From the NCBI GenBank assembly GCA_051294905.1, contig CM119371.1, positions 25,670,001 to 25,734,000 of the forward strand: a stretch of DNA of 64,000 bases. Reading direction: 5' to 3'. This stretch comes from Botryllus schlosseri (lineage: Eukaryota). The notes beneath the pieces were generated by a model. It worked only from the letters and a program-made list of their open reading frames with translations, was not told the DNA's origin and did not search any database. The position numbers and the translations under genes were made by a program. Positions 5,036 through 53,909 of the stretch are shown one piece after another; the stretch's first letter is position 1, and the number at the start of each line of letters is the position of its first letter.

Positions 5036-6930
5036 ACGTGTTCAGGGTAACCGTTATCAAGTAAGATTTTTCGGATGTTGTCAAGTTATAATTAGAGCAA
5101 TTTTTTTGACCTAAAAAACGGAAGATTTTGACCTAAAAAATTTACATTTTGACCTTTTCTGACCTAAAAAACCGAAATTTGACCAAATACGTATGCAAAT
5201 TAGGTATTTTCGTATATAATGTTAAAATTGTACTACTCATCTTCATTTCTGGTTGGAACTGTCTGTCTTTACAAAGTAGATTGGCCTGAAAAAACGTTTT
5301 GGGCTCTAAAACTGACAGATTTTTACATGAAAAACTAGTATTTTAACGAAATCTAGCCCTATGAAGAATTCCAGTAGTTACATTACGTATTCTGGTGGGA
5401 ATAATTAAAATTTGTTGTAGTACAACGAAAGATCCTTTCCTACATTCTCGGGTAGAAAGTGTCTGTCCTTACTACGTAGCTTGCCAAGAACGGAGAAAGA
5501 ACGTTCAACAGCAGCATTTGTTGGCTGACAACACTCAAGTTGTGTGCACACTGCTGGTGACAAACCGTGTTGCTTCATTCTGACAATGTTGTCTATATCA
5601 CAATTTTTCAGCTTGCGCTTCTTGATATAAGAACCATGCAATGTCCAAGCAGTCTTGCTTCAGCTAGGATATTGCGGTACGTTGACCATAAAACCATGTC
5701 ACTATTAGTTTCATTTGACCATTTATGATTCACAATGAGCAGATGATGGTCCGTTTACAACGGTGAGCCTATAAAGTAGGCTACAAGCTGTAAAATATCA
5801 AATGATAAGTTCACCGACAGCGCAAAATCTAGGATACAAACGAAAAGCAGAGGTCAAAAAATGTAAACAATTTTGACAAATTTTGACCTAACGCTACAAT
5901 TTTGACCTAATTTTGACTTTTTTTGACATGTCATGCCCTAGTTATAATATCAGTTTGTTACCCGAACATATACTCAACGCTCTATGCACGAGGGTGCCTA
6001 TGAGGTTAATTTTTCTGCGACGAGGACTGAATGAGTTCCAACGAAGGCATTGGCCTGTGAATGTCGGTTTCCTGAAGACAGACGTTTAAAATTTGTTGGT
6101 ATTGCGCTTTTCGACTAAAACGTCCAGAAATGATAATGAGGTATTGCGTTCTTTTTCTATTGTGAATTGCAAGGCCGGGTGAAGCGAGTTTAAGCGAACT
6201 AGGAATTGATCACACGCTGACTCATTTCTGAAGATGACAAAAGTATCATCTACATATCGGCGGTACAATAGTGGTTTGACGGACTCACGCTGGGAGAGAA
6301 GCTCGTTCTCATAATATCCTACAAAAATGTTGGCCAAAATAGGTCCCAGGGGACTACCCATTGCCACGCCGTCTATTTGGCGAAACATGACCTCGTTAGA
6401 GCTAAACTCCACGGAACAGGTTGCCGCTTGTAAAATTTCAACAAAGACGTTTCGCGGGATTGATGGTGGTGGTAACTTACCACCGTAAAGCGCGTTGGCA
6501 CAAATATCAATAGTCTCATGCAGCGGAACGTTCGTAAAGAGAATCCAGGTTTCGTATTTCACCATCGAACGTGAACGAATCGCGAACGCATTCCGTGCCG
6601 TACAATTCCCGAACAGGTTCCAAAATGTCAATAAGCCATTTTGCCGGCTGATGTTTAGCAGACCCGATCATGGAGGGTATCGGTCTCACTGGGACATTGT
6701 CGTTGTGAGTTTTTGGCAGTCCGTACATGCGTGGTCTTTGCGATCCCGTTGGTCGGATGGACATCGTTTTTCTTCAAGGTCAGCAACCGGTTTGTCAGTC
6801 GTCTTTCAATTTTAGGTGTATTTTCGAATTCCGAAACCAAACCAAGCGAGATAAATAATAGATTAAAAAACACCTACTTAAACACCTTTTGTCGGTATAT
6901 AAACATTGAACTTGATAATAAATCTCGGTA
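5036..6930 (-). mobile_element. Decayed Penelope-like retroelement RT, interrupted by a hAT insertion
   Basis: Motifs PRMYGLPKTH, DGVAMGSPLGPILANIF, YRRYVDDTF, FLDVLV, FRKPTFTG and KINLIGTLVHRAL continue across the 5093-5940 insertion to LLDNGYP. Frameshifts and stops are present; the endonuclease region is absent. Confidence 0.9.
5093..5940 (-). mobile_element. Non-autonomous hAT derivative retaining the C-terminal dimerisation domain
   Basis: Perfect 8-bp TSD gttataat (5085-5092, 5941-5948); termini tagagca.../...tgcccta; subterminal ttttgacc repeats; ORF 5405-5641 has PTNAAVERSFS. Confidence 0.85.
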
Positions 6931-21857: not shown

Positions 21858-22116
21858 CCTAGCCATAGCGATAAAACACCGCAGCTGACTATGATTTGCA
21901 ATCTCTATATATGTAAGCGTGTTTCTGTTAAGTGATTAGTAAGTCCAACTATTTGCTTAATTTGGCTATGGTGCGATAGGTACGCCACCCTCTAAATATT
22001 GTATTTGAAGTGAAAATAGTCAACTCGAGGATGGTACTGATTCAAAAATAAGTGCCATTATATACTCAGATACAAGCCCTATACTTCACTTTAAAATTCA
22101 TGGCTGGTTTGTTAGT

Positions 22117-25100
22117 AGTAGTTATGTAGATCGGTCGTGATTTGCCTGGGGTTCTTATGGGCGGGGTGGTGACTCGCCTGAAAACCGGGGGTGGTGACTC
22201 GCCTTTTTAGACCCCCCTCTCGGCGGTGAGTCGCCATGTGTTCTTATGGGTGCGGCCGTGATTCGCCCTTTCAGGTATAGCTCGTGGCGGTGATTCGCCG
22301 TGAAAACTCGGGGTCGTGACTCGCCTTTTTTGCTATAGGCGGTGGCGGTGATTCGCCTGTCGTGTATTCTTAAGCGGTCTCTGGTGACTCGCCATGTGTT
22401 CTTATGGGTGCGGGCGTGAATCGCCCTTTCAGGCATCTCTCGCACGGTGTTGAATATGTATCAAGTAAATAGTCATGTGAATGAACCTTTGTTAATGTGT
22501 ATATCGTAAATTATTATATATGATGTAGTTTAGTCGTGACAAATGACCGATCGTGTTCTAAGTCTTTCCTCGCTATTGATTGCTAGCTGGATAATACTTT
22601 CAGTTCGGATTATTCGCACCTTCCGTACCGCTGTTTCGCACCTATAGATTAGTCTGCTGTTCACAGTCGTGACTTCACCGCGATAGCGCAATTTTCGATC
22701 AGTCGCATGGTAATGTTTTGCTATTTAGTTTACCACAGAGCCGGCGTAGACGGTGATTCGAATACCAACAATAGCCGCGTTCACATACCAACACTCCAAA
22801 AAGGTGTGAAATATTTCCTACGACCACTCACAAGATAGCACATCAGAATAGTCATCTCTAGTGGTTTGATGTTACAAAGATAGGAATCACGCACAAGTAA
22901 TATTTTGGTAATAAGTTTGTCACATAACCGGCATAGATGATGATACCAACAATAGCCGCGTTCACAAACTAACACTTCAAAAAGGTGTGAAATAGGTTGC
23001 AAACCCCGCGATCGCTAACAAGATATTGTCTCGGACATAACCATCTTTCGCGACTTGCTGTTACATACATTCCAATCACTCACAAGATACTATTTTGGTA
23101 CTTAGTTTGTCACAGAACCGGATTTCACTGGTAAAATTTAATAATTAACGAATAACAGAGCCGGCGTAGACGGTGTTTCGAATACCGACAAATTCTCACT
23201 TATTTCTGATCCCGCCCTAATCCTTTGCGAAGTTGACGCTTATTCGAAAAGGTGTGAAATAATTGTAAAACCCTACGTCGCTGACAGGATAATGCATCAG
23301 ACATAGCGATCTAGTTATAGCACGGGTCGGAATCCATTCGCGAGATGTTCTATAGGCAAATTGAGATAATCCGAAACGAAATATTTTGACTTTGGTGTAG
23401 TGTGAATTGAAATAGGATTGACAAACATGACTATCAACTTTCCACAGTCCCATATTGATATTATACGCATATTGATTTGAAACAAGTAATGGAACATTGC
23501 AACTCTATTCGCGATCCGACTTTTCGTTTGTCAAAGCGACATTTTAACATCTTACCATACTCAAAAGAATTATTTACAACATTAACAAGTGTTCAAAATC
23601 TAGTTTTCCATTGCTTGATTATATCACTGCAACTCACAAATTTGAATTAATTCATCCTGGTTGTATTCGTATGATCGGTCTTTTTTATTCAATTGTAAAG
23701 GTCGTTACTATTCTGAAGACAATGTAAGCTATTTACTAATCGACACATAAATGACTTGACATAAACATATTATATTTCGAGTATACGAGATTTGAATGTC
23801 TGAACAATAACCGAGAAATAATTTATTACAATAAAATACGTATATTACAGCGTAAAAGATGTTTGAATGTCAGCAACTCTGTACGGTCATAGTTACTACC
23901 ACTAATTTACCCGACCAACTCGTCATGATCATTCCTGAAATCAACACAAATATGACCACTGACTTGAGTTAACCACAAAACAGCATCAAGTTTTAAATCC
24001 ACTCGTAGCTTACGGATTACTTGAATGCTGGTTATGTTTTGTTGTAATTGAGTTAACGAAATAGTATTACGTCTCGACATCTTACCATCTTACCATATTC
24101 AAAGATTCAACCACGAAAACATTGTCAAGTAAATCCGTTAACCGACCAACTCAAACAGTATCAATACGAAAAACAACCAAACATACACGAATCCATACAA
24201 TCACTAAAACCTAAAATCCATAACAAGCTTGGTTGTATTCATATCCCTACGCGTCTTTTTTATTCAACTTGAAAAGTCGTTACTATTCTGTAAGATAAAG
24301 GAATTACTACGCGGTATATTCTGCAAGACAAACTAATTACTACTCGGTATATTTTGAAAGACAAAAGTAATTACTTCTCAGTGTCGGCGACTTGAGATTA
24401 ACATAATATGTTTGAGTATGCGAGATTTGACAGTCTGACCATCGTAGTTTCTTACAAACGAACACAGGTGTTATATCAAAAATTATCATGATGTAAACAT
24501 AAGGATTGACACATTGATCATTACTTTATTATTAAATTATTTGCGTTAATTAAACCCGGCGTTGTGGTAAATGTTATGACAGCAACAAACTTTTCAGTAC
24601 CAATGTTATTAACATATTAAGCTGTAAACTATGTGTGTCTGAAATGTTTTGATTGGGAAGATTACTCCACCTTGGTAAAAATCACTCTGCGTATCGCGAT
24701 ATCAGGAAATATTTTACAAATGTAATTGTTTCCAGTAACCAAGACTAAAGATGAAACAGCAATATCGGTATTATTACATTCAACAATCAGTACAATTATT
24801 AAAATCTATCGTTTGCGATAAACAGCACTAAAGATGTAATAATTCCAGTATTCATACATTGAACATCCGATACAAAATGCTTTATTATCCCGATTCCCAA
24901 CGGGTAATTGAAACGACTAAGTGTAGAATCAGTATATCACAATATCGTTACCATTGAATCCAACGATTTATTGTCGGAATTTGCGACAGAGAATTGAAAC
25001 ATATGCACTTTACAGAGTGTGAAAATATCACTTTGAGTATCGAGTACCGTTCGAAGCTAGCAATCAATTCTTGATCATTTCAGTAACTCCCCATTGTGCG

Positions 25101-28100
25101 TGCTAAATGTAAAATATCGCGAGGTTATACACTCTAAGACTTTGATCATTACAAAAGTAAATTGGAATATGTTTGCTAGATGCATTCAGTTAGAAATGTC
25201 TGGTACACAACAATCGTAATATCAAGGTAGTACTTGCTACACTGTAATTCACTTAACGTGTTTTGCATTGTTGTTCATTTGTAGTATTGATTGTTTTTGA
25301 ACCTCCAAATAATAATTCCCGACATGAAACCAAACCGCTGAAAGTCGTTACCATCACAACGAAACCATTTGTACGATGTTTGCCAAATGTATCCTATAGT
25401 TAGGTGTACTAGAATCACTGGTCCAACACATACACCGACAATGCAATCGAAATTTTCCCCATTGTCATTCGTCAAAGTAAAGGTCGTTACAATACTCAAC
25501 CCATAAAAGATCTTACTTGTATGTGATTGAATCGCAGGTAATTAACCCACTAAATCAAACCATAAGGAAATTTCACTCACTCATCGGATATGAAACAGCG
25601 TCACTTAATCGACGTAGATCGTTTTACTAAATGCAAATCATACCTGACCAACAGAAAACAATTTTCACTCACCTTGTAATGAAACCAAGTGGTGGGCCTT
25701 CGTTCAATATTTTGTCTGTGTCAAATACTTTGTAATAAACACAATGGAGTGGTTGAGCTTTACATCATCAAGCTGTCATTAATAAATCATGATTTCGGTA
25801 AACTTGTAAATGTATCGTTTAACTAACCGAGTTGTATGCAAAGTTTTATATTTTTATCATTTAGTTATTGCTGAACATACCACTTCGAAATACTGCGTTG
25901 ATCTCAATTCCCTTTGTCCTGATAATCACAGTACTTTTGTTTTGAATTCATAACAATTGGCTTTTCTATGACATGATAAATTAGAAGATTTAGAAGATTG
26001 GTTGCATATCACTAAAAATAAGATACCACACATATTATTACTGTCACTCCATTCATCGGTATTTTTTCCGTTGTCGATTTCCAAACGAGTAAAATTTATT
26101 ACTTGAGTTGCTCTGCTTACTATATTAATATGTAAACTCACCCGTCTTTCAACAACAAACAATGTTAAAAAAGTATGCAATCAAACACAACAAGTTTTAC
26201 GATACTAATTATTATCCCACATAACCCATTTCTTACCGAAGACATATTAAATATATTCATGTTACACGAAAATATTCGCTCATGCTACAAACCTGTACAA
26301 TGATTGGTGGTGCTTTCAAACTGTTTCGATACCTCAAGAACTTTATTGTCTGAATGGTTGTTCATGTATCGTAATTATCAAGTAGTTCAACACAGAACTA
26401 GTATTAACAGAAACACCAGAGTTGTTTACACAAAAGTTTGTATGTGTACAGTATGCGAATACCATGTGTAAGTCCAGCACAATTGTGGTATCCATACGAG
26501 TTTAGTTAACACAATTTACGACACCGAGGTCGCCTCATCTTTCGTAAGACAACAAACCAAGGCTTCAGGATATGTCCATGTCATAACAATAAATCAGCTA
26601 CTCCAACAACAGAGTACATATGTTTTCTAGTTACGGTGCTTACATCTTACACACAAATCGACCTACTTTGCTTACGAAAAGCGCTGAGTCATCACATGGT
26701 TATCCTCACAACAATACAACTAAAACATACTATCATACAAATTGGTCGTTATAGTTTGCCCACCAACGATACATCGTACAAGTAGCAAGTCTCGAGAATC
26801 CAGTTATTCAAAAAAACGTGAAAGTGTTTCTACACCAAGTCGGTATGTTGACGAAAGCATATATTGTAATATCATGATCGATTTACATTCGTTGGTCACA
26901 AAATGTCACTACTCTAAATAATTATTTTTCACTCAAAGCCTACTTGTCACCATTCGTTTCATCAAGCACGAGTTCAAGAAACCTGCTACGACATGAATTG
27001 TTATTTTTATGTTGTGTAAATAGGGAATAATTAATTTTAGTAACACTATATCAACATCATCGAGTTGTGCGAATAGATTTACATGTGGTCTTGTGGTTTT
27101 AATCGAAGTATACAGCACGGTCTAATGTAGAGTCATCTCTATTGTACAACAACTCGGTAATCGAAATGCATTAAAATTTAAACAACGATCTTGGTTCGTC
27201 GCACCAAAAAATATGTTTACTATCACGATACTCTACACAGGCCGTGTAAATCCTTTTCACACTCGTAATAGTATACCAACAGCTACCGGCGACAACGTTT
27301 AACAATACCAACGACACTAAACATACGATACCTACCCAAGTAAAATTACCATTTTCACCTGGAGGTCGGTCGTAACCCGAGTAGAAATACCATTATCCTT
27401 TGGAGATTTATCGTTTACCCAGTGTAACAAACCCCTTTTCCTTTGGTAATCTATTTTTCTCTTGGTAACAAACCTTTTTCACTTGGAAATATATTTTTTC
27501 TCTGGTTAACAAACCTTTTTCACTTGGAAATATATTTTTTCTCTGGGTAACAAACCTTTTTCACTTGGAAATATATTTTTTCTCTGGGTAACAAACCTTT
27601 TTCACTTGGAAATATATTTTTTCCCCGGGTAACAAACCTTTTTTCCTGAGCAACAAACCATTTTCACTTGTAAATATATTTTTTCCTGGGTAACAAACCT
27701 TTTTCACTTGGAAATATATTTTTTCCCTGGGTAACAAACCTTTTTCGCTTGGAAATATATTTTTTCCTTGAGCAACAAACCATTTTCACTTGGCGGGTCG
27801 TCGTTTACCTGACTAAAAATATCATTTTCCTTTGGAGATCTGGGGTTTACCCAGTGTAACAATACATTTTCTCTTGGTCATCTAGCTTTTCCTAGAGTAA
27901 CAAAACCATTTTCATTTTGAAATCTGACAAACACACCCGACAATTTGGTGTTTGTTGTATTGACGATAGTTTGAAATAGATTACAACGAACAGTGACGGA
28001 AATATACACGGACTACCGGTTTCAGAGTATACCCCCTTCAGTCGTATCACATCAATATCATCGGTTACCCACATACAATATCCTCTTGTACACCGAAATG

Positions 28101-28657
28101 CATGTTTTGGAAAATTGGACAATAGACTTCCATAGTTCTGTGATGTCCGGGTTCGTGCTTTGGATTTTCCAGAGTCAAAATGTCTGAATAAAACACCTCC
28201 TCGACGATGGTTGGTATGTGGATAACGGGGTTCGGAAGACGGTTGGATTTATGTCACCCATCGCGATAACAATTCCAGGTCGAGTTTTCCTCCCGCATGT
28301 TTACTATATTGTGTCGTTATTGGTCAATGTATGTCTCGACATTCAGTTTGAAATCGGAAACCCTGATAAAGTATGTAACAGGATCCGGATATCAACTCTG
28401 AATCGATAAACCAATGAACAATATTCAAAGTAAACATGTTGCATTCCACGAAAAAATACCATCCAGACATACGTCGCGCTTGTTTGCCCACATCAGTATA
28501 CGCGTAAATGGAGGTGTGTGACATTGCATGTAATGTGTTGGTATACAAACATCGATCCACAGACATTATCATAGCCGGTAGTTTTGATGTAGATCGAATG
28601 TCATCACACCCGATAACAATGTCATACCAATAAGCCACATTGCAATGACTCTGAGTC
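22117..28657 (+). repeat. Left arm of the giant inverted repeat (6541 bp)
   Basis: Reverse complement of 29570-36071; mirrored ORF pairs in the track (22155/35743, 22781/35185, 25275/32688, 25926/32007, 28218/29818). Confidence 0.97.
27425..27795 (+). repeat. ~41-bp tandem minisatellite (taacaaacctttttcacttggaaatatattttttctctggg)
   Basis: About 8-9 units; mirrored at ~30435-30765 and present again at ~63755-64000. Confidence 0.95.
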
Positions 28658-29187
28658 CGCGCTATTACATCGATATTTCGACACCGTTCACTGATTTACT
28701 CGATGGTGTTATCGTGTTGTAACATTACAAGATAGTCATGGCCCTATCTCCGGACAGATCACCCAGATCGCTAGTGACTGGATACATCGGTCAATATCCG
28801 TCGTGTTGTCCGAAGTTTTCTGCTGCAGCGTTTGACCTATGTGAACTATCGAAGTATGGGTGCTCGAAATGATTGCGATCAGTCTTTCAGTCACGATGCA
28901 TGGATGTCGCTACTCCCACATAACGACTCCAGATAAATATCGCGAACAGTGATTCTGCAAATCTCGGACTGATACTGTGATTCAATAAGGTGTGTTTCTG
29001 TGGAATGAAGACTGCAATCGTACACCACAATAGAACACTACCTCGCGATTTCACACGCAATCATAAAACACATCATCGTAAGGATTCAGTTCGTCCGGTG
29101 ACATTTCGAAACGGTCATCGCCACGAGAGATCGGTATCATTTTGAAACGACATCGTCACAAGTCTATTGACGTCGATTCTGTTGGTC

Positions 29188-29469
29188 ATGTCAATCCGTT
29201 TCACAATCCACCGTTTTTCAACTCCCCGCACCATAGTGTTACGACACAGACAAGAAGCGTCGGTGGAAATAATAAAACACGGAAAGCACACTTTGGTGTT
29301 ATTTGACATGGATTTTACACCCGACGAGCCTTACATTCGAGCGATACATTGGAATGACACTTGTATTATTGACGTAGAAGGAGCAGAAATGTATCGATTT
29401 ATTGGTTTCGTACATATCCAACAAAAACCAGGGTATGTGATTGTGCGTGGTTCGCATATTCGACTGTGA
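29188..29469 (+). CDS. Small hypothetical ORF in the unique central spacer
   Basis: ATG-initiated ~93 aa (MSIRFTIHRFSTPRTIV...GSHIRL) with protein-like composition; no family recognised. Confidence 0.3.
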   Translation: MSIRFTIHRFSTPRTIVLRHRQEASVEIIKHGKHTLVLFDMDFTPDEPYIRAIHWNDTCIIDVEGAEMYRFIGFVHIQQKPGYVIVRGSHIRL

Positions 29470-29569
29470 ACGCTCTATTGGTATATGCTGTATAGTTCAC
29501 TTTCACCGTCGTGCGAATAACCCATGTTACGGTTCGATGTTTGTGTGTCTGTATGTCACGCTTCAGATT

Positions 29570-32500
29570 GACTCAGAGTCATTGCAATGTGGCTTATTGG
29601 TATGACATTGTTATCGGGTGTGATGACATTCGATCTACATCAAAACTACCGGCTATGATAATGTCTGTGGATCGATGTTTGTATACCAACACATTACATG
29701 CAATGTCACACATCTCCATTTACGCGTATACTGATGTGGGCAAACAAGCGCGACGTATGTCTGGATGGTATTTTTTCGTGGAATGTAACATGTTTACTTT
29801 GAATATTGTTCATTGGTTTATCGATTCAGAGTTGATATCCGGATCCGGTTACATACTTTATCAGGGTTTCCGATTTCGAACTGAATGTCGAGACATACAC
29901 TGACCAATAACGACACAATATAGTAAACATGCGGGAGGAAAACTCGACCTGGAATTGTTATCGCGATGGGTGACATAAATCCAACCGTCTTCCGAACCCC
30001 GTTATCCACATACCAACCATCGTCGAGGAGGTGTTTTATTCAGACATTTTGACTCTGGAAAATCCAAAGCACGAACCCGGACATCACAGAACTATGGAAG
30101 TCTATTGTCCAATTTTCCAAAACATGCATTTCGGTGTACAAGAGGATATTGTATGTGAGTAACCGATGATATTGATGTGATACGACTGAAGGGGGTATAC
30201 TCTGAAACCGGTAGTCCGTGTATATTTCCATCACTGTTCGTTGTAATCTATTTCAAACTATCGTCAATACAACAAATACCAAATTTTCGGGTGTGTTTGT
30301 CAGATTTCAAAATGAAAATGGTTTTGTTACTCTAGGAAAAGCTAGATGACCAAGAGAAAATGTATTGTTACACTGGGTAAACGCCAGATCTCCAAAGGAA
30401 AATGATATTTTTAGTCAGGTAAACGACGACCCGCCAAGTGAAAATGGTTTGTTGCTCAAGGAAAAAATATATTTCCAAGCGAAAAAGGTTTGTTACCCAG
30501 GGAAAAAATATATTTCCAAGTGAAAAAGGTTTGTTACCCAGGAAAAAATATATTTGCAAGTGAAAATGGTTTGTTGTTCAGGGAAAAAGGTTTGTTACCC
30601 GGGGACAAAAATATATTTCCAAGTGAAAAAGGTTTGTTACCCAGAGAAAAAATATATTTCCAAGTGAAAAAGGTTTGTTACCCGGAGAAAAAATATATTT
30701 CCAAGTGAAAAAGGTTCGTTACCCAGAGAAAAATAGATTACCAAAGGAAAAGGGGTTTGTTACACTGGGTAAACGATAAATCTCCAAAGGATAATGGTAT
30801 TTCTACTCGGGTTACGACCGACCTCCAGGTGAAAATGGTAATTTTACTTGGGTAGGTATCGTATGTTTAGTGTCGTTGGTATTGTTAAACGTTGTCGCCG
30901 GTAGCTGTTGGTATACTATTACGAGTGTGAAAAGGATTTACACGGCCTGTGTAGAGTATCGTGATAGTAAACATATTTTTTGGTGCGACGAACCAAGATC
31001 GTTGTTTAAATTTTAATGCATTTCGATTACCGAGTTGTTGTACAATAGAGATGACTCTACATTAGACCGTGCTGTATACTTCGATTAAAACCACAAGACC
31101 ACATGTAAATCTATTCGCACAACTCGATGATGTTGATAAAGTGTTACTAAAATTAATTATTCCCTATTTACACAACATAAAAATAACAATTCATGTCGTA
31201 GCAGGTTTCTTGAACTCGTGATTGATGAAACGAATGGTGACAAGTAGGCTTTGAGTGAAAAATAATTATTTAGAGTAGTGACATTTTGTGACCAACGAAT
31301 GTAAATCGATCATGATATTACAATATATGCTTTCGTCAACATACCGACTTGGTGTAGAAACACTTTCACGTTTTTTTGAATAACTGGATTCTCGAGACTT
31401 GCTACTTGTACGATGTATCGTTGGTGGGCAAACTATAACGACCAATTTGTATGATAATATATTTTAGTTGTATTGTTGTGAGGATAACCATGTGATGACT
31501 CAGCGCTTTTCGTAAGCAAAGTAGGTCGATTTGTGTGTAAGATGTAAGCACCGTAACTAGAAAACATATGTACTCTGTTGTTGGAGTAGCTGATTTATTG
31601 TTATGACATGGACATATCCTGAAGCCTTGGTTTGTTGTCTTACGAAAGATGAGGCGACCTCGGTGTCGTAAATTGTGTTAACTAAACTCGTATGGATACC
31701 ACAATTGTGCTGGACTTACACATGGTATTCGCATACTGTACACATACAAACTTTTGTGTAAACAACTCTGGTGTTTCTGTTAATACTAGTTCTGTGTTGA
31801 ACTACTTGATAATTACGATACATGAACAACCATTCAGACAATAAAGTTCTTGAGGTATCGAAACAGTTTGAAAGCACCACCAATCATTGTACAGGTTTGT
31901 AGCATGAGCGAATATTTTCGTGTAACATGAATATATTTCATACGTCTTCGGTAAGAAATGAGTTATGTGGGATAATAATTAGTATCGTAAAACTTGTTGT
32001 GTTTGATTGCATACTTTTTTAACATTGTTTGTTGTTGAAAGACGGGTGAGTTTACATTTAAATATAGTAAGCAGAGCAACTCAAGTAATAAATTTTACTC
32101 GTTTGGAAATCGACAACGGAAAAAATACCGATGAATGGAGTAACAGTAATAATATGTGTGGTATCTTATTTTTAGTGATATGCAACCAATCTTCAAAATC
32201 TTCTAATTTATCATGTCATAGAAAAGCCAATTGTTATGAATTCAAAACAAAAGTACTGTGATTATCAGGACAAAGGGAATTGAGATCAACGCAGTATTTC
32301 GAAGTGGTATGTTCAGCAATCACTAAATGATAAAAATATCAAACTGTGCATACAACTCGGTTAGTTAAATGATACATTTACAAGTTTACCGAAATCTTGA
32401 TTTAATAATGACAGCTTGATGATGAAAAGCTCAACCACTCCATTGTGTTTATTACAAAGTATTTGACACAGACAAAATATTGAACGAAGGCCCACCACTT

Positions 32501-35500
32501 GGTTTCATTACAAGGTGAGTGAAAATTGTTTTCTGTTGGTCAGGTATGATTTGCATTTAGTAAAACGATCTACGTCGATTAAGTGACGCTGTTTCATATC
32601 CGATGAGTGAGTGAAATTTCCTTATGGTTTGATTTAGTGGGTTAATTACCTGCGATTCAATCACATACAAGTAAGATCTTTTATGGGTTGAGTATTGTAA
32701 CGACCTTTACTTTGACGAATGACAATGGGGAAATTTTCGATTGCATTGTCGGTGTATGTGTTGGACCAGTGATTCTAGTACACCTAACTATAGGATACAT
32801 TTGGCAAACATCGTACAAATGGTTTCGTTGTGATGGTAACGACTTTCAGCGGTTTGGTTTCATGTCGGGAATTATTATTTGGAGGTTCAAAAACAATCAA
32901 TACTACAAATGAACAACAATGCAAAATACGTTAAGTGAATTACAGTGTAGCAAGTACTCCCTTGATATTACGATTGTTGTGTACCAGACATTTCTAACTG
33001 AATGCATCTAGCAAACATATACCAATTTACTTTTGTAATGATCAAAGTCTTAGAGTGTATAACCTCGCGATATTTTACATTTAGCACGCACAATGGGGAG
33101 TTACTGAAATGATCAAGAATTGATTGCTAGCTTCGAACGGTACTCGATACTCAAAGTGATATTTTCACACTCTGTAAAGTGCATATGTTTCAATTCTCTG
33201 TCGCAAATTCCGACAATAAATCGTTGGATTCAATGGTAACGATATTTTGATATACTGATTCTACACTTAGTCGTTTCAATTACCCGTTGGGAATCGGGAT
33301 AATAAAGCATTTTGTATCGGATGTTCAATGTATGAATACTGGAATTATTACATCTCTAGTGCTGTTTATCGCAAACGATAGATTTTAATAATTGTACTGA
33401 TTGTTGAATGTAATAATACCGATATTGCTGTTTCATCTTTAGTCTTGGTTACTGGAAACAATTACATTTGTAAAATATTTCCTGATATCGCGATACGCAG
33501 AGTGATTTTTACCAAGGTGGAGTAATCTTCCCAATCAAAACATTTCAGACACACATAGTTTACAGCTTAATATGTTAATAACATTGGTACTGAAAAGTTT
33601 GTTGCTGTCATAACATTTACCACAACGCCGGGTTTAATTAACGCAAATAATTTAATAATAAAGTAATGATCAATGTGTCAATCCTTATGTTTACATCATG
33701 ATAATTTTTGATATAACACCTGTGTTCGTTTGTAAGAAACTACGATGGTCAGACTGTCAAATCTCGCATACTCAAACATATTATGTTAATCTCAAGTCGC
33801 CGACACTGAGAAGTAATTACTTTTGTCTTTCAAAATATACCGAGTAGTAATTAGTTTGTCTTGCAGAATATACCGCGTAGTAATTCCTTTATCTTACAGA
33901 ATAGTAACGACTTTTCAAGTTGAATAAAAAAGACGCGTAGGGATATGAATACAACCAAGCTTGTTATGGATTTTAGGTTTTAGTGATTGTATGGATTCGT
34001 GTATGTTTGGTTGTTTTTCGTATTGATACTGTTTGAGTTGGTCGGTTAACGGATTTACTTGACAATGTTTTCGTGGTTGATTCTTTGAATATGGTAAGAT
34101 GGTAAGATGTCGAGACGTAATACTATTTCGTTAACTCAATTACAACAAAACATAACCAGCATTCAAGTAATCCGTAAGCTACGAGTGGATTTAAAACTTG
34201 ATGCTGTTTTGTGGTTAACTCAAGTCAGTGGTCATATTTGTGTTGATTTCAGGAATGATCATGACGAGTTGGTCGGGTAAATTAGTGGTAGTAACTATGA
34301 CCGTACAGAGTTGCTGACATTCAAACATCTTTTACGCTGTAATATACGTATTTTATTGTAATAAATTATTTCTCGGTTATTGTTCAGACATTCAAATCTC
34401 GTATACTCGAAATATAATATGTTTATGTCAAGTCATTTATGTGTCGATTAGTAAATAGCTTACATTGTCTTCAGAATAGTAACGACCTTTACAATTGAAT
34501 AAAAACGACCGATCATACGAATACAACCAGGATGAATTAATTCAAATTTGTGAGTTGCAGTGATATAATCAAGTAAGTGAAAACTAGATTTTGAATACTT
34601 GTTAATGTTGTAAATAATTCTTTTGAGTATGGTAAGATGTTAAAATGTCGCTTTGACAAACGAAAAGTCGGATCGCGAATAGAGTTGCAATGTTCCATTA
34701 CTTGTTTCAAATCAATATGCGTATAATATCAATATGGGACTGTGGAAAGTTGATAGTCATGTTTGTCAATCCTATTTCAATTCACACAACACCAAAGTCA
34801 AAATATTTCGTTTCGGATTATCTCAATTTGCCTATAGAACATCTCGCGAATGGATTCCGACCCGTGCTATAACTAGATCGCTATGTCTGATGCATTATCC
34901 TGTCAGCGACGTAGGGTTTTACAATTATTTCACACCTTTTCGAATAAGCGTCAACTTCGCAAAGGATTAGGGCGGGATCAGAAATAAGTGAGAATTTGTC
35001 GGTATTCGAAACACCGTCTACGCCGGCTCTGTTATTCGTTAATTATTAAATTTTACCAGTGAAATCCGGTTCTGTGACAAACTAAGTACCAAAATAGTAT
35101 CTTGTGAGTGATTGGAATGTATGTAACAGCAAGTCGCGAAAGATGGTTATGTCCGAGACAATATCTTGTTAGCGATCGCGGGGTTTGCAACCTATTTCAC
35201 ACCTTTTTGAAGTGTTAGTTTGTGAACGCGGCTATTGTTGGTATCACCATCTATGCCGGTTATGTGACAAACTTATTACCAAAATATTACTTGTGCGTGA
35301 TTCCTATCTTTGTAACATCAAACCACGAGAGATGACTATTCTGATGTGCTATCTTGTGAGTGTTCGTAGGAAATATTTCACACCTTTTTGGAGTGTTGGT
35401 ATGTGAACGCGGCTATTGTTGGTATTCGAATCACCGTCTACGCCGGCTCTGTGGTAAACTAAATAGCAAAACATTACCATGCGACTGATTCGAAAATTGC

Positions 35501-36071
35501 GCTATCGCGGTGAAGTCACGACTGTGAACAGCAGACTAATCTATAGGTGCGAAACAGCGGTACGGAAGGTGCGAATAATCCGAACTGAAAGTATTATCCA
35601 GCTAGCAATCAATAGCGAGGAAAGACTTAGAACACGATCGGTCATTTGTCACGACTAAACTACATCATATATAATAATTTACGATATACACATTAACAAA
35701 GGTTCATTCACATGACTATTTACTTGATACATATTCATCACCGTGCGAGAGATGCCTGAAAGGGCGATTCACGGCCGCACCCATAAGAACACATGGCGAG
35801 TCACCAGAGACCGCGTAAGAATACACGACAGGCGAATCACCGCCACCGCCTATAGCAAAAAAGGCGAGTCACGACCCCGAGTTTTCACGGCGAATGACCG
35901 CCACGAGCTATACCTGAAAGGGCGAATCACGGCCGCACCCATAAGAACACATGGCGACTCACCGCCGAGAGGGGGGTCTAAAAAGGCGAGTCACCACCCC
36001 CGGTTTTCAGGCGAGTCACCACCCCGCCCATAAGAACCCCAGGCAAATCACGACCGATCTACATAACTACT
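29570..36071 (-). repeat. Right arm of the giant inverted repeat (6502 bp)
   Basis: As for the left arm, with scattered substitutions and one fewer ~41-bp unit. Confidence 0.97.
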
Positions 36072-36226
36072 GTTAGTGTGGAAGGTAATATTGAAAAATG
36101 TATATGTCGATCCATATTTATCTTACACCCCCTAAAACGTAAATTATTTGTCACAGACCTTATAACTCACGTAGGTCGAAGTTTTTTGCATGCGAGGAAA
36201 GATTCAGCCAGCATGCCATTGTATAC

Positions 36227-37345
36227 TAGGGCTGCCATACGTACGGAATTTCCTCTGTGACATGTCCGAAACTTCACTGTTCAAACTAGCGTTCGGGAGG
36301 AATTTCTAAAATATGGCAAATGTCCGGAATTTTGAAGACTTGACGTAGGCTCATAATTTTTTTCGTCAATCAGCGTAAAAACAATAATTTTTGGGAATAT
36401 TTATGCTGATGCATGATTTTTTTTCGCGCTGCGCGCGATTTGCCATCGCATTTATTGATTTTCATTTGTCGATCCTCGCAGAAAACTGCAATAAAATATA
36501 CATAGAAACAACCTTAATTTACTGGAATAAGCCTAATTGTAATCGCGATTATAGGAGAACGGTATATTCCTAGAGATCGTTAAGGCCGCTTAAATGCTTT
36601 ATTCAAAGATAGTGGTTCCAAACGAAGGGTCGGTTACCTTTGTTCTAGGGTTTGCGAATATGTTGAAGTTAATCAGCCTCCCAAATAGCCCGTGAGTAAA
36701 TGTGAGCAAAGGTGCTGACTTCTTTTAGTAATCAGCTCGTCAAATTTTGATCTGAGCCACGGAACATATTCAAATTGGAGATGGAGTAGCGACCATAAAA
36801 CGTTGGAAACCACTGGATGCGGGGTGTTTATAAATCTCCGTGGTGCGCGCCGGCATAAGGTTGATAAACAATCTTATCGCTAGAACATAAACATGACGTA
36901 ACGATGTGCAATTACGGTCCCCGTATTTTCGAACTGTTCATTCTCCACGAGCTCTACCGCTAACTCCAATCATGTGGGCGGAGAGTAGTATTTAAATAGT
37001 AATATATGGAACAACCAATAATATTGACAGAATTCATTCAAATATTTTAACGACCAGGTGGATATAAAAACCAGATTCCTACAGCAAGCACCCCCGCCCA
37101 GAAGTTTCATCGTTTACCCTATAGTGTTGGCTTAACATCACTGTTTATTTTGGCGGAAGGGGCTGAAAACATGTGCTTTCGGTCCCGGTTGCACAACACA
37201 CAGCCACATACTCCTGAACCGGATCGTGACCACCTCTGGTCTATGAGCAAAGCTTTTCTACTGTGACGTCATAACTCATTTTGAAATCCAATAATGGGCG
37301 CTAAAGAGTGTCCGGAATTTGGGTTGCAGAAATATGGCAACCCTA
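36227..37345. mobile_element. hAT non-autonomous element with a nested MITE (~36611-36815)
   Basis: TIR tagggctgccata / tatggcaacccta; TSD ttgtatac / ttgtagac. Confidence 0.8.
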
Positions 37346-46937: not shown

Positions 46938-48379
46938 GTCTATGCCCTTATGCAGACCAAAGACTTCGCTATATATACAAAATACATATAGGTTTACTTG
47001 TTCATAGGCGCCTAAATGACTGGCGCCGAATGTTCCTGTCTTTGCAATCTGAACCTAACAAGACAAATACCATCCCGCTAAGAAAAAATTTATGCCAGTG
47101 AAGAAATACCAATTTCAAATCGTGTGCGTCTCTTAGTTTAGAAGCCTACGTTTGGGCGGTTCTATATTTTTTAATATAGCAGACTGGAAGTCACGAAATA
47201 ACATCATGTAACGAAGTCATATCAACGGTTTCGCCTGCCCGAAGATGTTTAATCATTATTTACGGGCCCTTCCGTTTTCAAGACACTTAACTCAGCTCTA
47301 CCGATAAATCTAATAACGTGAGTAGAGAGGACAATAAATTGATAGCATATTATATATGCAATCGCCGATCTGATGGACCGATTTTATCATAAATTATCGA
47401 AAATCTTCGCGCGTGGCGCTGGCTCACAATACAGTACCGGTAATTTCGTGACAAACGCGAACAACGTGATGGGGTGGGTCGTTTTATCACCCTATGGAAG
47501 CCCAAGACCCACGTTTTTGGGGCCTGACGAGGTGCTGTTTCGTTCCTGCCAACGGGTATACGCCCGAAGATGTTTAATTATTATTGAGTCGACCTACCTT
47601 TTCAAACACACCTCACTCAGCTCTAACGGCAAATCTGATTACGTGAGCTGAGAGAAGATAAAAATTGATAACAATGTATGCAATTCCCGATCATACTGAC
47701 CGATGAAAGCTTGAACTCTAGAATTTTTGCGCGCTTAGGCGGCAAAAGCGATCCACAAAATAAACTCCCAGTGAACATGATTATTAGTGGTAAACAGGGG
47801 TAAAAGTGTATCGCCGGAGGGGGGTCTGGGGGACGAAACCCCCCAGACGTTCGGACTATAACCCTATGGGGGGCCCAAGACCAAAGTTTTTTTGGGGGGC
47901 TGACGAAGTGCTGTTACGGCCCTACACACTATAGGAAACTTAATCCAGTATTACGCGATTCACGAACGAATCGCAATAGCGCGTAATAAAGGCATATTAC
48001 TATTAATTATATCCTCTCGCACCCCATGTAATCGAATTTATTGCTATAGACTTAGCTCAATTTGTAGACATAAGTTTGTAAAGGAAACATTACACTGGTC
48101 AAAAAAAATGAAAAAAAATTTTTGGCAGAATATCTGAGAGCCGTTTCAGGGGCTTTCGAGATTGCTGATTACCAATATCACATTAGTTTTGCCAGATTGG
48201 CTCTTGTTCAGGATATATTTATACCCCTAAAAAAGCCCAAAATTACTGTATCTACCCCATTTCACTTGATAGGAAGAAAATCGTACTTTTTATTCTAATT
48301 TTATACTGCGCATAAAGAGATAGTTGACTATGAAGAACCCTCATGTCGTTCTCAGTCATTCTATCAATAAAAACATGAC

Positions 48380-49446
48380 CTGGTGCGAAATATTTGTTTG
48401 TCAGCGAGAAAAGTGGAAGGAAGCTAAAATACGAATTGCTACAACAGCTAAGCCTAAACCCTACGCAAGCAAGGTTTAACGAGATAACCATAGAGCTCCC
48501 AAAGCGTCCAGCAACACATCTTATTGTCAAAGGCATAGCATGTTAAACTAAAAAGGACACGGCAGTTAAACAACTGAGCGAATATGGATTCGGAACGGTT
48601 GTCAATCAGACAAGAGTATTTTACAAGAATACTAACTATTACAACGGCTTCACTAACATCTGGATGGAGGATTTCGGTAAAGAAGATATGCCAGAAAGTA
48701 TGATTATTAATGGTGTGAGATGCTGGACCAAGACTGCTGTAGATGCATATCAAAAGCGATGCTACAACTGTAAGGCGGCGGGTCATATGGTCAGAGATTG
48801 CCAAGCCGACAAATTGGAATGCGCGAAGTGCGGCGGGCTTGGCCATGGCGCAGAAACATGCAAAGCAAAACGTAGCAAAAGACAAAGCGATCACGAGGCT
48901 GGAATCGAAAAGGCTGAGGGAGTCAATGATCAAATCGCAGATAAACTTGTGAGAGAAAACTCAGACGAACCCCATGCTGGTGAGAGAATAACCGACGAAA
49001 CGAACGAATCGACGAAAATAACAACAGAGAAACCAGTTGACCTGAATATGAGTCAGAATGAGGACACGAACAGAAATCAAACAGCGCCGAATAGACCGGT
49101 GATGACGAAATCTTACACATCACCGGACGCTGCATTCGGGAATGAAGACACAACATAAGAACAGTCCGTACATCCTCAGGTCAACGAGGAAAAACACGAA
49201 TCAAGCAAATCAAAAAAAACACAGACGGCCGAAATGGCGCTCAATAAAAGACCGCCTAATGCCATCAAAGGACCAAAATCGAGCGCCAGCTGTGATAGGG
49301 CGGCGAAACAACAAAACGGAAACAGAGTAACGACCAGAAACACCACAAGCAACCAAGCAATAATAACAAAACCGAATATAAATGGGATTAAAAAAGACAA
49401 CACGAAAAAGAAGACAGCCAGAATCCCGCAAGACCCCAAAACATAA
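48380..49446 (+). pseudogene. LINE ORF1 (gag-like), disrupted
   Basis: LIVKGI...LSEYGFGTV...YYNG; CYNCKAAGHMVRDC; CAKCGGLGHGAETC; internal stop and frameshift. Confidence 0.8.
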
Positions 49447-50324
49447 TCAATGGCGAACCTATTGAAGCTAGCATCGATTAACGTAAATGGATTATCAAAC
49501 AGACTACAGGATTTGGAACAATGTATACAGACTTCGAATTTGGATATATTATTGATTCAGGAAACGCATAAGATCGATAATGTGGATATACGTAACTGGG
49601 CAGCCGATATAGGATTTATTATCTACTTCAACACAAAGAACGAAGTGAGACAATATTCTGGCAATGCGATAATGATCAAAGAACATCACGAAGGTAAAAT
49701 TTTTCGTCACTACAGCATGATAGAAAACCGTGCACAATGCCTCTGCATTCAAATTGAAAAATGCCCAATAGCTATAATAAATATTTATGCCCCGTCTGGA
49801 CAATCCGCAGATGCGAGAAAGTTACGTGATGGTTTCCTAATTCAACTCGAATCAGAAATCCATGAACTTGAAGTCCCGGTTATATTGGGTGGTGACTTCA
49901 ACCGACTTATTGACAAAAAAGACACTCGAATTAAACAGAACCTCGATGTTAGAAGCGCCGAGAGACACTTTGAAAAGCTAACTAACGACGCGGAACTGAT
50001 TGACGTGTTTAGGAGTAAACATCCTCTTGCCGAAGTATTCACTTACGTCACTGGAAAAAACGCGAGGAGACTAGATCGTTTCTACGCAACTCGTGAACTC
50101 GTGGGCCCTGTTCAGAATGCAGGACATGAAAATAACCTTGTGGCTGACCACATAAGTCCGACAATAACACTTGCAATTGAGCCAGGCACTCTATGGGGAA
50201 GAAAAAATTGGAAGTGTAGTAATGACCTTTTGCGAGATGAAGTGTACCGAGATATAATATCTAATCTCATAAGCTTCGAAGAAAATAATATCCAACACTG
50301 TCACGGAATTCAACAATGGTGGGA

Positions 50325-50594
50325 GTGGCGAGATAGCGCAGTGGTATAATCCGCGGCTGCAACACCAATGGGTGCGGGTTCGAGTCCGACCGAGGTCGAC
50401 TTCCGAAATTCGATATCTAAGTGTTGGAGGTTTACCTAGGCTCCTCCTCACCACCTCATCAGCGGTGTCTTACAAAAGCCTAGGGGTGGGCCGTGCTATA
50501 AGTCGGCAGTTACGGAAAAATAAGAAGAATATCGGCCTGGTGTAAATGACCATAGCAGTCGACACACCATGAATAACCCAAAAACAAACAAACA
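50325..50594 (+). mobile_element. tRNA-derived SINE
   Basis: A-box tagcgcagtgg, B-box ggttcgagtcc, (aaac)n tail, 13-bp TSD aacaatggtggga (50312-50324, 50595-50607). Confidence 0.9.
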
Positions 50595-51616
50595 AACAAT
50601 GGTGGGACAGACTAATAGAATTGCCAACGTAAGCAAGAGATATGAAATAGACAAATATAAATCTGTGGCTCCCAGATAACGTATCAGAGGGTAAAGGGAA
50701 AATTGCGCATGTTAACCAAAATTGACCATTGCGAAGGTGAACCTAACACGATGAGACAATTTTGGCAAGAATTGAAGACCAGAAGGCGCAAGACCGAGCT
50801 TAAAGAACTCCTGCTCAGAGATGGAACGGTAACGACTGACCGTAATATTATTGCTAAACAGATTGAACAATTTTACGCAGAATTGTGGACCCGACACGAC
50901 GCCATTAATTCGTACGTTCAAGTCGAATATCTATCATCGTATCAGCACGACCGCATGCACGGGAGAGACAATGAACAAACATCGGTAATACAATCTAGCG
51001 AAATATTACAAATACTGAAAGCAATGAACAGGGAAAGGTCACCGGGTTTCGACGGCCTAACAGTGGAATTCTACCTTGCTACGTGGCAAAACATTGGTTC
51101 GAGATTAGCAGAAATCATAAACAACGCGCTAATATACGGAAACATACCGCATAGCTGGAAACGCGCTAAAATTATTCTGATTCACAAAGGAAAGGACAAA
51201 AAGGATTTAGCGAACTGGCGACCCATTTCGCTGCTAAACACGGACTACAAAATAATGGCGAAAATTCTCAATAACAGACTGGTTGAGGAAATTACGAGCA
51301 ACATCAACATGACGCAGAAAGTGGGAATTCCCGGAAGACAAATGGACGTGATACACAACAATGTGAGTGCAATTGTGAATTATCATCAAGAAAAACCTTT
51401 AGAAGGTTATATAATGACCATAGACGCAAGGAAAGCCTTTGATGAGGTGGACCAACAAATGCTTTTCAAAGTGATTGACAAACTGCCCGTCCCGGGAGAA
51501 ACTCTAAAAGTGATCAAAGCCACATATGATAATCCTATTGCGACCCTCGAGGTTAACGGCCTCCAAGCAGCCAATGTAAATTGTACAAGGGACATTAGAC
51601 AAGGATGTCCTTAGAG

Positions 51617-52036
51617 CAGTGTTCCCCAACCCCGAGTCCGCGGACTCATTTGAGTCCGCGGAAGGTCCTGGGTGAGTCCGCGAGCCCAGTAATTTTAAGT
51701 AACTTTATCGGCACACACGTTGACAGATTGTCAACCTTGTATTATGCAGTGGTGACAAATAGCGATGTCGACAGAATTCGTCACAGGCGTTGATCTAACC
51801 ATTGTGATTCGCAACTTTCTTCACCTTCAAGTCACATAAAATAAGCCGAGTCAATGACTTGAGTCGAGTCATGCGTAATGACTCGAGTACAAGTCGAGTC
51901 AATCCAAATATTGACTCGAGTCCAGTCGAGTCATTTTCCCATTTCAAGAAAATGACTCGAGTCAAGTCGAGTCACAAAAAAATCGTGACTCGAGTCTGAC
52001 TCGAGTCGAGTCATGACTCGAGTCATTACAACCCTG
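51617..52036. mobile_element. Chimeric hAT MITE remnant inside the LINE RT
   Basis: Left end cagtgttccccaac with gagtccgcg motifs; right end ...ttacaaccctg with many gactcgagtc palindromes; no TSD. Confidence 0.7.
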
Positions 52037-53909
52037 CTATGCACTAACGACAACATCAAAGGTATCCGAATCGACGGGATAAAGCATAAATTAGACCAAT
52101 TTGCTGATGACGTCACACTGTATCTAAGAACAACTGACTCTATTACCACAGTCCTTAACGTATATCAAAGCTTGCATAGAGTGACAGGTCAAGATATCAA
52201 CACAGACAAGACGGAAATCCTACCGCTGAACGAAAAATCACGTATCAGACTGCAAGAAACTGCGCACGCACATATGCTAAAGCCAGTAATTAAGATACTG
52301 GGCTTATACCACGGAGAAAGCGAACTGGAAATGAACTTCCACAGACTCTGACAAGGAGTCGAGAAAAGCGTAAGGCATATTAAATCAAAACGGCTTTCTT
52401 GGATTGGTAAAATAACGGCGATTAAGGCATACATAATTAGCAAAATAACTTTTTACATATGCTAACAAGCAAATTCCAGGCGACAAGCTCAAGCAACTCG
52501 AACGCCTCGTCTTCGGCCTACTGTGGAGTCCTGAGAAACTCGAGCAAAAAAGCAGAATGCAACTGATCAGAACTAAGCCAGAAGGAGGAATTGATATGCC
52601 AGATATCGAATCTGCAACACAAGCAAAGAGAGCAAAAAGACTACAACAACTGAGTCGACTCGAGAACCCAATTGATATCTGCCATGCAAAAGCGATGTAC
52701 AATCTGACAACGAAGGTGGGCGATATAAATTGCAATTTATACAACAACCTCTACCCTCACAGAAATACATTGACGGAGGAATGGAAGAAGGAAAAGGAAA
52801 TCTTCGACGTAATTAAAAGCCAATCACAAGATATACAAGAACTAATCCAGAAAGAAATGTACCAGATCCTTGTTAAAAAAAACGCAACAAGGAGGAAGCC
52901 GCATGGTGGACTGGAAAGAGATGTCTGGCTATACCAACCCAATATCAAATATCACATTGACAACAAGAAACGTGAGATTTCGTATCGCATTAACACTGAG
53001 AGCTACTTTACAGGCTCCAGAAAAACCAACGCAGGCTGGGTACGAAGAAATGACGCCTACTTGAAAAAAAAATGCAAATTCTGTCAACACGCCGAAGATA
53101 CTCTGCGTCACACCTTCGCCGAATGTTCAACTTACAAAAAACTGTTCTCTCTTTGTAATACAGGATCTCGAGAACGACCTGCAAACGACTATTGACGCTA
53201 CACCCGACGAGATCATGAGCTACGTCTACGACGGACCACAAGCTCCGACTATAATACAAGCTTTTATGAACGTGAAAACCCTTGTGTGGGAATGGAAAAA
53301 TGCACTCGACATACAAAATGAATTCGCCCAAAATATTGACGAACGCATCTACTATATAAGAACTAAAATATACCGAATAATTTAAGCGAGCCCATTAAAC
53401 GCTTGTGCGATAAATCGTATTGTATTGATCGACCCACAAAGCCCAACCAATCCACCTACAACCTATCCCAGCCCCCCAAACCTCCCATCCCATCCCTCTT
53501 TACCCCACCCCTAAACCACTAAACCCTCCCCCGACCTACCCTATCCACCACCCCCCCTACCCTATTCCTACCCCACCTACCACCACTCCACCGAATTTAT
53601 ATGAAAAACACACGCAAACAAGCGCCAAGTACTGTCGGCTCCTACTACGACCGCGACCACGAATGGACATCGACTGCTGCGATGAGATGAGCCGAGCGAC
53701 TACGACCGCCAACTTACGACGGCGCCTACTACGACCGCGAATACAAATCCGACTTCGACAACGGCTGATACGAGATGACCTGATGAATGATGATGGGGAA
53801 AGACTTTCTTTATGAAATTTTGATATTTTATGTACATATTTGAATAAACATCTCTAAAACGGTCATACCAAAAACTCGAAAATTGGTATCCACAGCTATC
53901 CTGCTAGGC

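Follow-up and report, generated by a model that had tools for sequence, protein, structure and literature searches.

A palindromic non-autonomous Polinton derivative with a small conserved gene in the genome of Botryllus schlosseri

Which kind of mobile element consists almost entirely of two inverted arms, exhibits the ends of a Polinton and encodes none of the Polinton enzymes? This question is raised by an element of 13,955 nucleotides (nt) at positions 22117-36071 of a 64,000-nt stretch of the Botryllus schlosseri genome (assembly GCA_051294905.1, contig CM119371.1, positions 25,670,001 to 25,734,000 of the forward strand). The whole stretch is referred to as the window and coordinates without a contig number are those of the window. 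The element is, with good probability, one insertion of an abundant non-autonomous and satellite-like Polinton/Maverick family that is replicated and integrated by helper elements. The features of the element are listed below.

Structure and insertion of the element

22111..22116, no strand: left copy of the 6-bp target-site duplication (TSD) GTTAGT, which is present as a single copy at paralogous empty sites
22117..28657, plus strand: left palindrome arm, 6541 nt, 99.14% identical to the reverse complement of the right arm
22117..22668, plus strand: true terminal inverted repeat (TIR), the terminal ~550 nt common to autonomous Polintons (by similarity to autonomous copies), opening with (AGT)2
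22137..22425, plus strand: ten direct copies of the 10-nt motif GTGAYTCGCC at 25-36 nt spacing (by motif count), candidate protein-binding sites
27424..27927, plus strand: 41-nt tandem-repeat array of the inner left arm, with its mirror at 30301-30763
28658..29569, plus strand: unique spacer of 912 nt at the centre, with end-to-end homology to the spacers of other copies
29188..29469, plus strand: small conserved gene predicted from conservation across the family, 93 codons and a stop, orphan protein
29570..36071, minus strand: right palindrome arm, 6502 nt, closing with (ACT)2 (by inverted-repeat search and alignment)
35763..36051, minus strand: ten copies of GTGAYTCGCC in the right end, also 25-36 nt apart (by motif count)
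36072..36077, no strand: right copy of the TSD GTTAGT, a perfect match to the left copy

An earlier note made from the letters of the window alone had described AGTAGT...ACTACT termini, a perfect 6-bp TSD, and two near-identical inverted arms of ~6.5 kb around a 912-bp spacer that make up ~93% of the element. All of these were borne out. The left junction reads gttagt followed by AGTAGTTATGTAGATCGG and the right junction reads CCGATCTACATAACTACT followed by gttagt. The arms consist of three collinear inverted blocks of 99% identity (22117-22698/35490-36071, 22698-27580/30607-35489, and 27617-28657/29570-30610), and 912 nt lie between the innermost blocks. The global alignment of both arms using MAFFT contains 56 substitutions and two indel events (41 gap columns), and both arms make up 93.5% of the element. 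The motif GTGAYTCGCC has 28 matches in the window where 4.26 are expected, and none of 100 shuffles reached 28. The longest stop-to-stop frame of the element encodes 135 amino acids. The same note had called the element gene-less with no long open reading frame (ORF); the absence of a long ORF stands, but gene-less does not, given the conserved 93-codon frame of the spacer. No match was obtained from Rfam at gathering thresholds for 22000-29700 and no tRNA was predicted by ARAGORN for 22000-36200.

The flanks of the element (21860-22116, 257 nt, and 36072-36330, 259 nt) belong to another, far more abundant repeat within which the element sits, so other copies of that repeat can be used as empty sites. 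The best 40 matches of each flank (among 1516 and 2453 candidates) are 84-91% identical. The left flank matches contig 1 at 25474762-25475015 (97%) and the right flank matches contig 1 at 25475010-25475268 (98%), in a paralogue located 217 kb upstream on the same contig. Both matches are contiguous and overlap by exactly 6 bp. The second paralogous empty site is on the minus strand of contig 2 (12050902-12051157 and 12050753-12050907), where the overlap is also exactly 6 bp. This overlap at two empty sites, which are paralogous and not allelic, confirms the insertion of the element.

The palindromic family and its autonomous relatives

The assembly screened comprises 495.5 Mb in 219 contigs. 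The terminal 584 nt of the element have at least 57 matches in it (best 40 of 2654 candidates scored), and most of these form inverted pairs at distances of 13-29 kb. Thirteen copies were inspected, namely the window copy, ten copies from terminal inverted pairs, and two copies from spacer matches. All 13 copies exhibit AGTAGT ends and perfect 6-bp TSDs, the features that the earlier note had proposed to score in other copies. The TSDs all differ from one another (GTTAGT, GTAGAA, GACATA, TACGTA, TACAAG, TACGGT, CCGGTA, CACAAG, GTCGTG, GATGTC, ATCGAC, AAAGAA, and CACTTG). The terminal AGT units number two or three across the 13 copies, and the left end of one copy has one unit more than its right end.

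Ten of the 13 copies are palindromes that share one arm-spacer-arm plan. These copies are 13,348-14,247 nt long (mean 13,676, standard deviation 285) with arms of 6.2-6.6 kb and spacers of 660-977 nt. The remaining three copies consist of one partly palindromic hybrid (contig 14, 15,622 nt) and two non-palindromic copies. When the arm of another copy was used as the query, 16 of 24 loci exhibited inverted arm pairs with near-equal scores. With 13.7 kb per copy, about 2 Mb or more of the 495-Mb genome belongs to the family. The same plan, homologous spacers and an own TSD in ten of the 13 copies show that the element integrated as a palindrome, one of two routes that had been suggested; the other route, in which one arm was replaced in situ, is needless given the recurring plan.

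The recurrence of the plan also bears on the proposal that the structure is an error of assembly, such as long reads joined into a palindromic chimera. This proposal draws on the short length (~100 nt) of the contigs examined from public runs, none of which spans the structure. It is highly improbable, since the arms differ at 56 positions, TSDs bracket the whole structure, paralogous empty sites exist, the plan recurs at nine further loci, and inverted pairs occur at 16 of 24 loci.

The two non-palindromic copies (14,817 and 15,830 nt) have TIRs of only 549-560 nt and many long frames, of which 13 were scanned against Pfam. The frame of 1300 amino acids matches DNA_pol_B_2 (3.2e-8). The frame of 359 amino acids matches rve (1.7e-16) and Chromo (2.2e-9). 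The frame of 217 amino acids matches AAA_14 (9.3e-5) and Pox_A32 (0.0034), both below the Pfam cut-offs. Nine of the 13 frames have no Pfam match, and neither a capsid nor a protease was identified among the scanned frames. The TIR of the window element is 97.9% identical to that of the autonomous copy on contig 15 over positions 31-552 (522 nt) and 89.9% identical to that of the autonomous copy on contig 2 over positions 1-549. Autonomous elements with pPolB, integrase and matching termini, which the earlier note had proposed to look for, are therefore present as two copies. Polymerase matches across the genome number at least 38 (36 of 385 candidates scored), and 26 of them are full-length, 14 of these without a stop.

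The similarity between the window element and the autonomous copies is confined to the ends. No similarity was detected between the arms and the DNA of the two autonomous copies beyond ~550-600 nt (word size 7, E 1e-3), and helper frames of at least 100 amino acids gave nothing outside the TIR in tblastn. No polymerase, integrase, capsid, protease or packaging-ATPase frame was found in the window element using tblastn with the frames of the coding copies. The claim of a non-autonomous derivative of near-Polinton size thus holds, as the enzymes are absent and the ends are shared with coding copies. The cis signals retained from the helper are the (AGT)2-3 ends and the ~550-nt TIR with ten GTGAYTCGCC motifs. 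Polintons are defined by polymerase and integrase in the cited part of PMC5499653. Lacking both enzymes, the window element is strictly speaking no Polinton but a non-autonomous derivative of one. One decayed palindromic copy contains a 38-amino-acid fragment of another helper frame (tblastn).

Long inverted arms that hold tandem-repeat arrays are also what would be expected of another superfamily, Foldback-like or Mutator-like (MULE-like), that resembles Polintons at the tips only. The TSD of Foldback elements is 9 bp. All 13 copies have a 6-bp TSD, no frame for a transposase was found, and over 522 nt the end matches the TIR of a copy with pPolB and rve integrase at 97.9% identity. The assignment to such a superfamily therefore has hardly any probability.

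Adenovirus defective genomes with large inverted repeats are known, and the earlier note had proposed a copy-back-like parasite. The window element resembles snap-back/copy-back defective viral genomes, as these are characterised in the cited part of PMC13506859, in being linear, almost wholly self-complementary and helper-dependent with helper ends. The arms that make up 93.5% of its length and the ends common to element and helper would fit a genome of this kind that arose de novo from a helper Polinton by replication error. The arms of the element, however, are not helper sequence, since they are unlike the two autonomous copies beyond ~550 nt in DNA and in protein. The element is thus not a simple copy-back of its helper. 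The architecture, the spacer and the private gene are inherited across a heritable and diversified chromosomal lineage. Such defective genomes are also described as lacking coding capacity, whereas the element has a conserved ORF of 91-93 codons. A de novo snap-back origin is accordingly very unlikely.

The element is like autonomous Polintons/Mavericks in its (AGT)n ends, its 6-bp TSD and the ~550-nt TIR that it shares with coding copies. It is also close to the coding copies in length, within about 10-15% (13.3-14.2 kb in the palindromic copies versus 14.8 and 15.8 kb). It differs from autonomous Polintons in having no pPolB, integrase or other helper frame, and from the two coding copies in owning a private gene of 91-93 amino acids. 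The vertebrate Mavericks in the cited sections of PMC8097293 have (AGT)2 or (AG)3 end-motifs, 6-bp TSDs and a jumping-back mechanism, and their TIRs are 46-1447 nt in 134 intact elements with ~10% length variation. The butterfly polintons in the cited sections of a preprint (10.1101/2025.02.07.637071) have TIRs of ~2 kb. The inverted repeat of the window element is 6.5 kb, at least three times the longest reported in the cited parts of these Polinton papers.

Miniature inverted-repeat transposable elements (MITEs) are an example of non-autonomous DNA transposons whose similarity to the autonomous partner is restricted to the ends. The window element is like MITEs in sharing only the TIR, in its unrelated interior and in its high copy number. 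It is unlike MITEs in being palindromic, protein-coding and about 13.7 kb rather than a few hundred nt long.

Two further structures were observed among the copies. The hybrid copy of 15.6 kb (contig 14, 18593700-18609750) has an 855-nt TIR, 3-kb inverted arms and further internal inverted repeats. Both of its arms contain a 52-amino-acid N-terminal fragment of the polymerase (tblastn), and its small ORF has a one-codon insertion. The hybrid may be an intermediate between the coding and palindromic forms. A pair of family ends on contig 5 (716340-745175, 28.8 kb) surrounds palindrome-type arm segments and a polymerase match (732326-735739), which is probably a nested or composite insertion.

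The spacer and its small gene

The spacers of seven copies are homologous over their full length with pairwise identities of 90.7-97.5%, and the spacer has at least 40 full-length matches across the genome (92-96%). The spacer is conserved better than the arms between copies, where arm blocks are 67-91% identical. Between the window copy and the contig 7 copy, for instance, identity is 97.2% in the spacer and 70-89% in the arms. The same frame is open in all spacers compared. All 11 non-autonomous copies contain this small ORF once (tblastn and hidden Markov model (HMM), E <=2.5e-53), and neither of the two autonomous copies does (HMM best E 3.1). The first methionine is invariant in the ten copies checked and the stop follows codon 91 or 93. 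Two divergent spacer subfamilies were identified. The longest stretch that can be aligned between them (about 250 nt, ~75%) coincides with the small ORF, and one further match of 76-91 nt lies just upstream of it.

The ratio of nonsynonymous to synonymous substitution rates (dN/dS, NG86) of the small ORF lies between 0.18 and 0.61 in 33 of 36 pairs; the 14 pairs between subfamilies span 0.20-0.39. The variable sites number 43, 31, and 55 at the first, second, and third codon positions. The left arm and spacer contain 45 frames of at least 50 amino acids, and the spacer ORF alone is open and covered in nine of the ten other copies. The runner-up frames of the arm are 50-63 amino acids long and are located in repeats or in DNA that is conserved on both strands. 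The small ORF has at least 150 matches across the genome (150 of 1191 candidates scored) with 86-100% identity. Among the 150 scored matches, 113 have no stop and 37 have one. The stop in the one stop-bearing copy inspected is codon 92, the natural end of the 91-amino-acid form. Taken from these sequence comparisons, the spacer ORF is a family-specific gene under purifying selection, and its predicted protein probably serves the propagation of the element itself.

The small protein has no matching family in Pfam at E up to 10. The word-indexed search of 5.8 billion proteins gave five matches, none from beyond its own cluster, with identities of 62-97% and source contigs no longer than 1075 nt. 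The HMM search of 1.84 billion representatives gave its own cluster alone, the best score in the ESM Atlas was 0.88 (under the 0.9 line), and the small ORF was not found in IMG/VR or in JGI metagenome contigs. The AlphaFold2 model is all-beta and poor (mean pLDDT 55.7). Foldseek gave nothing for this model in the PDB at E <=0.001, and among 48,161 chains compared using VIA-align the best Z was 4.8, with none reaching Z 5. The top rows of VIA-align are the single-strand binders Pur-alpha (Z 4.8) and the phage T5 PC4 homologue (Z 3.7), values within the noise range of the tool for a poor model. A Pur-alpha/PC4-like fold is at most a lead from this modelling.

Two arrangements of the small ORF were also observed. 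Contig 10 contains two identical-scoring small ORFs in inverted orientation 2.3 kb apart (12100851-12101129, minus strand, and 12103119-12103397, plus strand); in this variant the ORF appears to lie inside the arms and not in a unique centre. Seventeen loci on 11 contigs have exactly the same small-ORF score (186.1 bits, 90% identity, one TGA), which suggests a recently amplified subfamily with identical ORFs.

Arm identity, proposed replication and significance

The arms within one copy are 99.14% identical in the window, 99.60-99.98% identical in eight other copies, and 82.9% identical in one decayed copy that retains a perfect TSD. The maximum-likelihood tree of the inner 1 kb of 20 arms places the left and right arms of a copy as sisters in ten of ten copies (support 83-100, or sequences identical). 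The distances between copies in this tree reach tenths of a substitution per site. The arms of the window are a mosaic, in which segments have different nearest relatives elsewhere at 91-98% identity. The only arm parts conserved in 9-10 of the ten copies are the TIR and the inner ~1.2 kb beside the spacer, which includes the 41-nt arrays. Between copies, no other arm segment is as well conserved as the inner arm (element positions 5201-6400). Because purifying selection has acted on the ORF, most differences between copies accumulated in lineages that were still propagating rather than in dead insertions. Since the arms remain identical within lineages that diverge, homogenisation acts during the life cycle of the element.

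The following life cycle is proposed. The protein-primed polymerase of the helper would start at the AGT-repeat ends and copy the linear element; the varying number of terminal AGT units fits sliding-back, compare the Mavericks in the cited part of PMC8097293. The displaced strand, which is 93.5% self-complementary, would fold into a long hairpin, an extreme form of a panhandle. One arm could then be copied or repaired against the other in the hairpin, so that near-identical arms would be produced in each generation. The rve integrase of the helper would insert the double-stranded copy, and the arms would decay independently after insertion (0.02-0.9% difference in nine copies and 17% in one old copy). 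The standing model for adenovirus and PRD1 in the cited part of PMC11886824 is that the inverted terminal repeats pair into a panhandle, also as a "homology-restoring" mechanism.

Arm-to-arm gene conversion is established in large genomic palindromes. The same element and helpers could therefore exist with arms kept alike by intrachromosomal conversion and not by replication or transposition. Conversion would equally yield the identities of 99.1-99.98% within copies and 67-91% between copies, and requires no unobserved hairpin intermediate. One copy with an intact TSD, however, has arms that are only 82.9% identical, so conversion does not keep the arms alike indefinitely. The divergence between copies also accumulated largely under purifying selection on the ORF (dN/dS 0.2-0.45), which points to propagating lineages. 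The arms are mosaics with segments whose nearest relatives are at different loci, and some copies are much more alike in the spacer (97.2%) than in the arms (70-89%). Conversion as the cause of arm identity is the less likely account, with perhaps a modest chance of being correct.

Several points weigh against the reading of a helper-dependent family with arms reset in a hairpin. Helper dependence rests on the common ends and the missing enzymes, and the first 30 nt of the window end differ from the closest autonomous copy. The hairpin route to arm identity is one that we infer by extending the panhandle model, and panhandles lack direct evidence even in PRD1 and adenovirus in the cited part of PMC11886824. 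Conversion between the arms of a chromosomal master copy predicts the same arm pattern as the hairpin. The sequence of "identical at insertion, then decay" is supported by one decayed copy only. The genome-wide counts are lower bounds from the best-scoring candidates. The public runs are Logan contigs of ~100 nt, of which none spans a junction, an arm or the spacer, and the joint 22116-36072 is not among the 15 of 134 joints listed from them. The small gene is predicted from sequence, and its dN/dS is at least 1 in three of the 36 pairs (1.95, 1.38, and 1.05), two of which have at most eight differences.

Virus satellites and virophages are helper-dependent and have few genes of their own. The family is like virus satellites in relying on helper replication and integration, in having a private gene under selection, and in outnumbering the helper. 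It is unlike them in having no capsid-related or known replication gene. The narrow near-helper length despite free arm exchange leads us to hypothesise a size constraint such as packaging. A stronger proposal is a true satellite, a hyperparasite of an endogenous polintovirus, in which a "snap-back" linear genome of near-helper length would be replicated by the helper polymerase through a full-length hairpin that resets the arms in each cycle, the element would be packaged in helper capsids, and the private protein would divert helper functions. Packaging in capsids would explain how the length of 13.3-14.2 kb is kept while arm sequence is exchanged, and the private protein would possibly be a nucleic-acid-binding factor that acts on the hairpin or on the 41-nt arrays. 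This stronger proposal is speculative and rather improbable.

There is hardly any description of non-autonomous Polinton relatives, and none of palindromic or gene-bearing ones was found in the open literature; Repbase Reports and subscription journals were outside the scope of this search and may hold a "Polinton-N" entry for this species. The non-autonomous lineage outnumbers its helpers, with at least 150 ORF loci (1191 candidates) versus at least 38 polymerase matches (385 candidates). Arm identity could serve as a readout for linear protein-primed replication of Polintons via panhandle or hairpin intermediates. The question of capsid packaging in Polintons can be approached through the conserved length of a gene-poor passenger, and that of the coding needs of an endogenous-virus parasite through the orphan protein.

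Other members of the family and one compositional feature were also observed. The second family member in the window extends from 58471 (ctacggc followed by AGTAGTATATACGATCGCTCGC) to the window end at 64000. The ends and outer arms of other copies match it with 70-90% similarity, and a cluster of GTGAYTCGCC-like motifs lies within it at 58524-59165. The palindromic copy on contig 9 (3986000-4000100, TSD GTCGTG) is nested in a GTGAYTCGCC-type motif of another Polinton-like end. The region 48000-53000 of the window exhibits a strong AT skew (up to 0.36) over ~5 kb, unlike other parts of the window.

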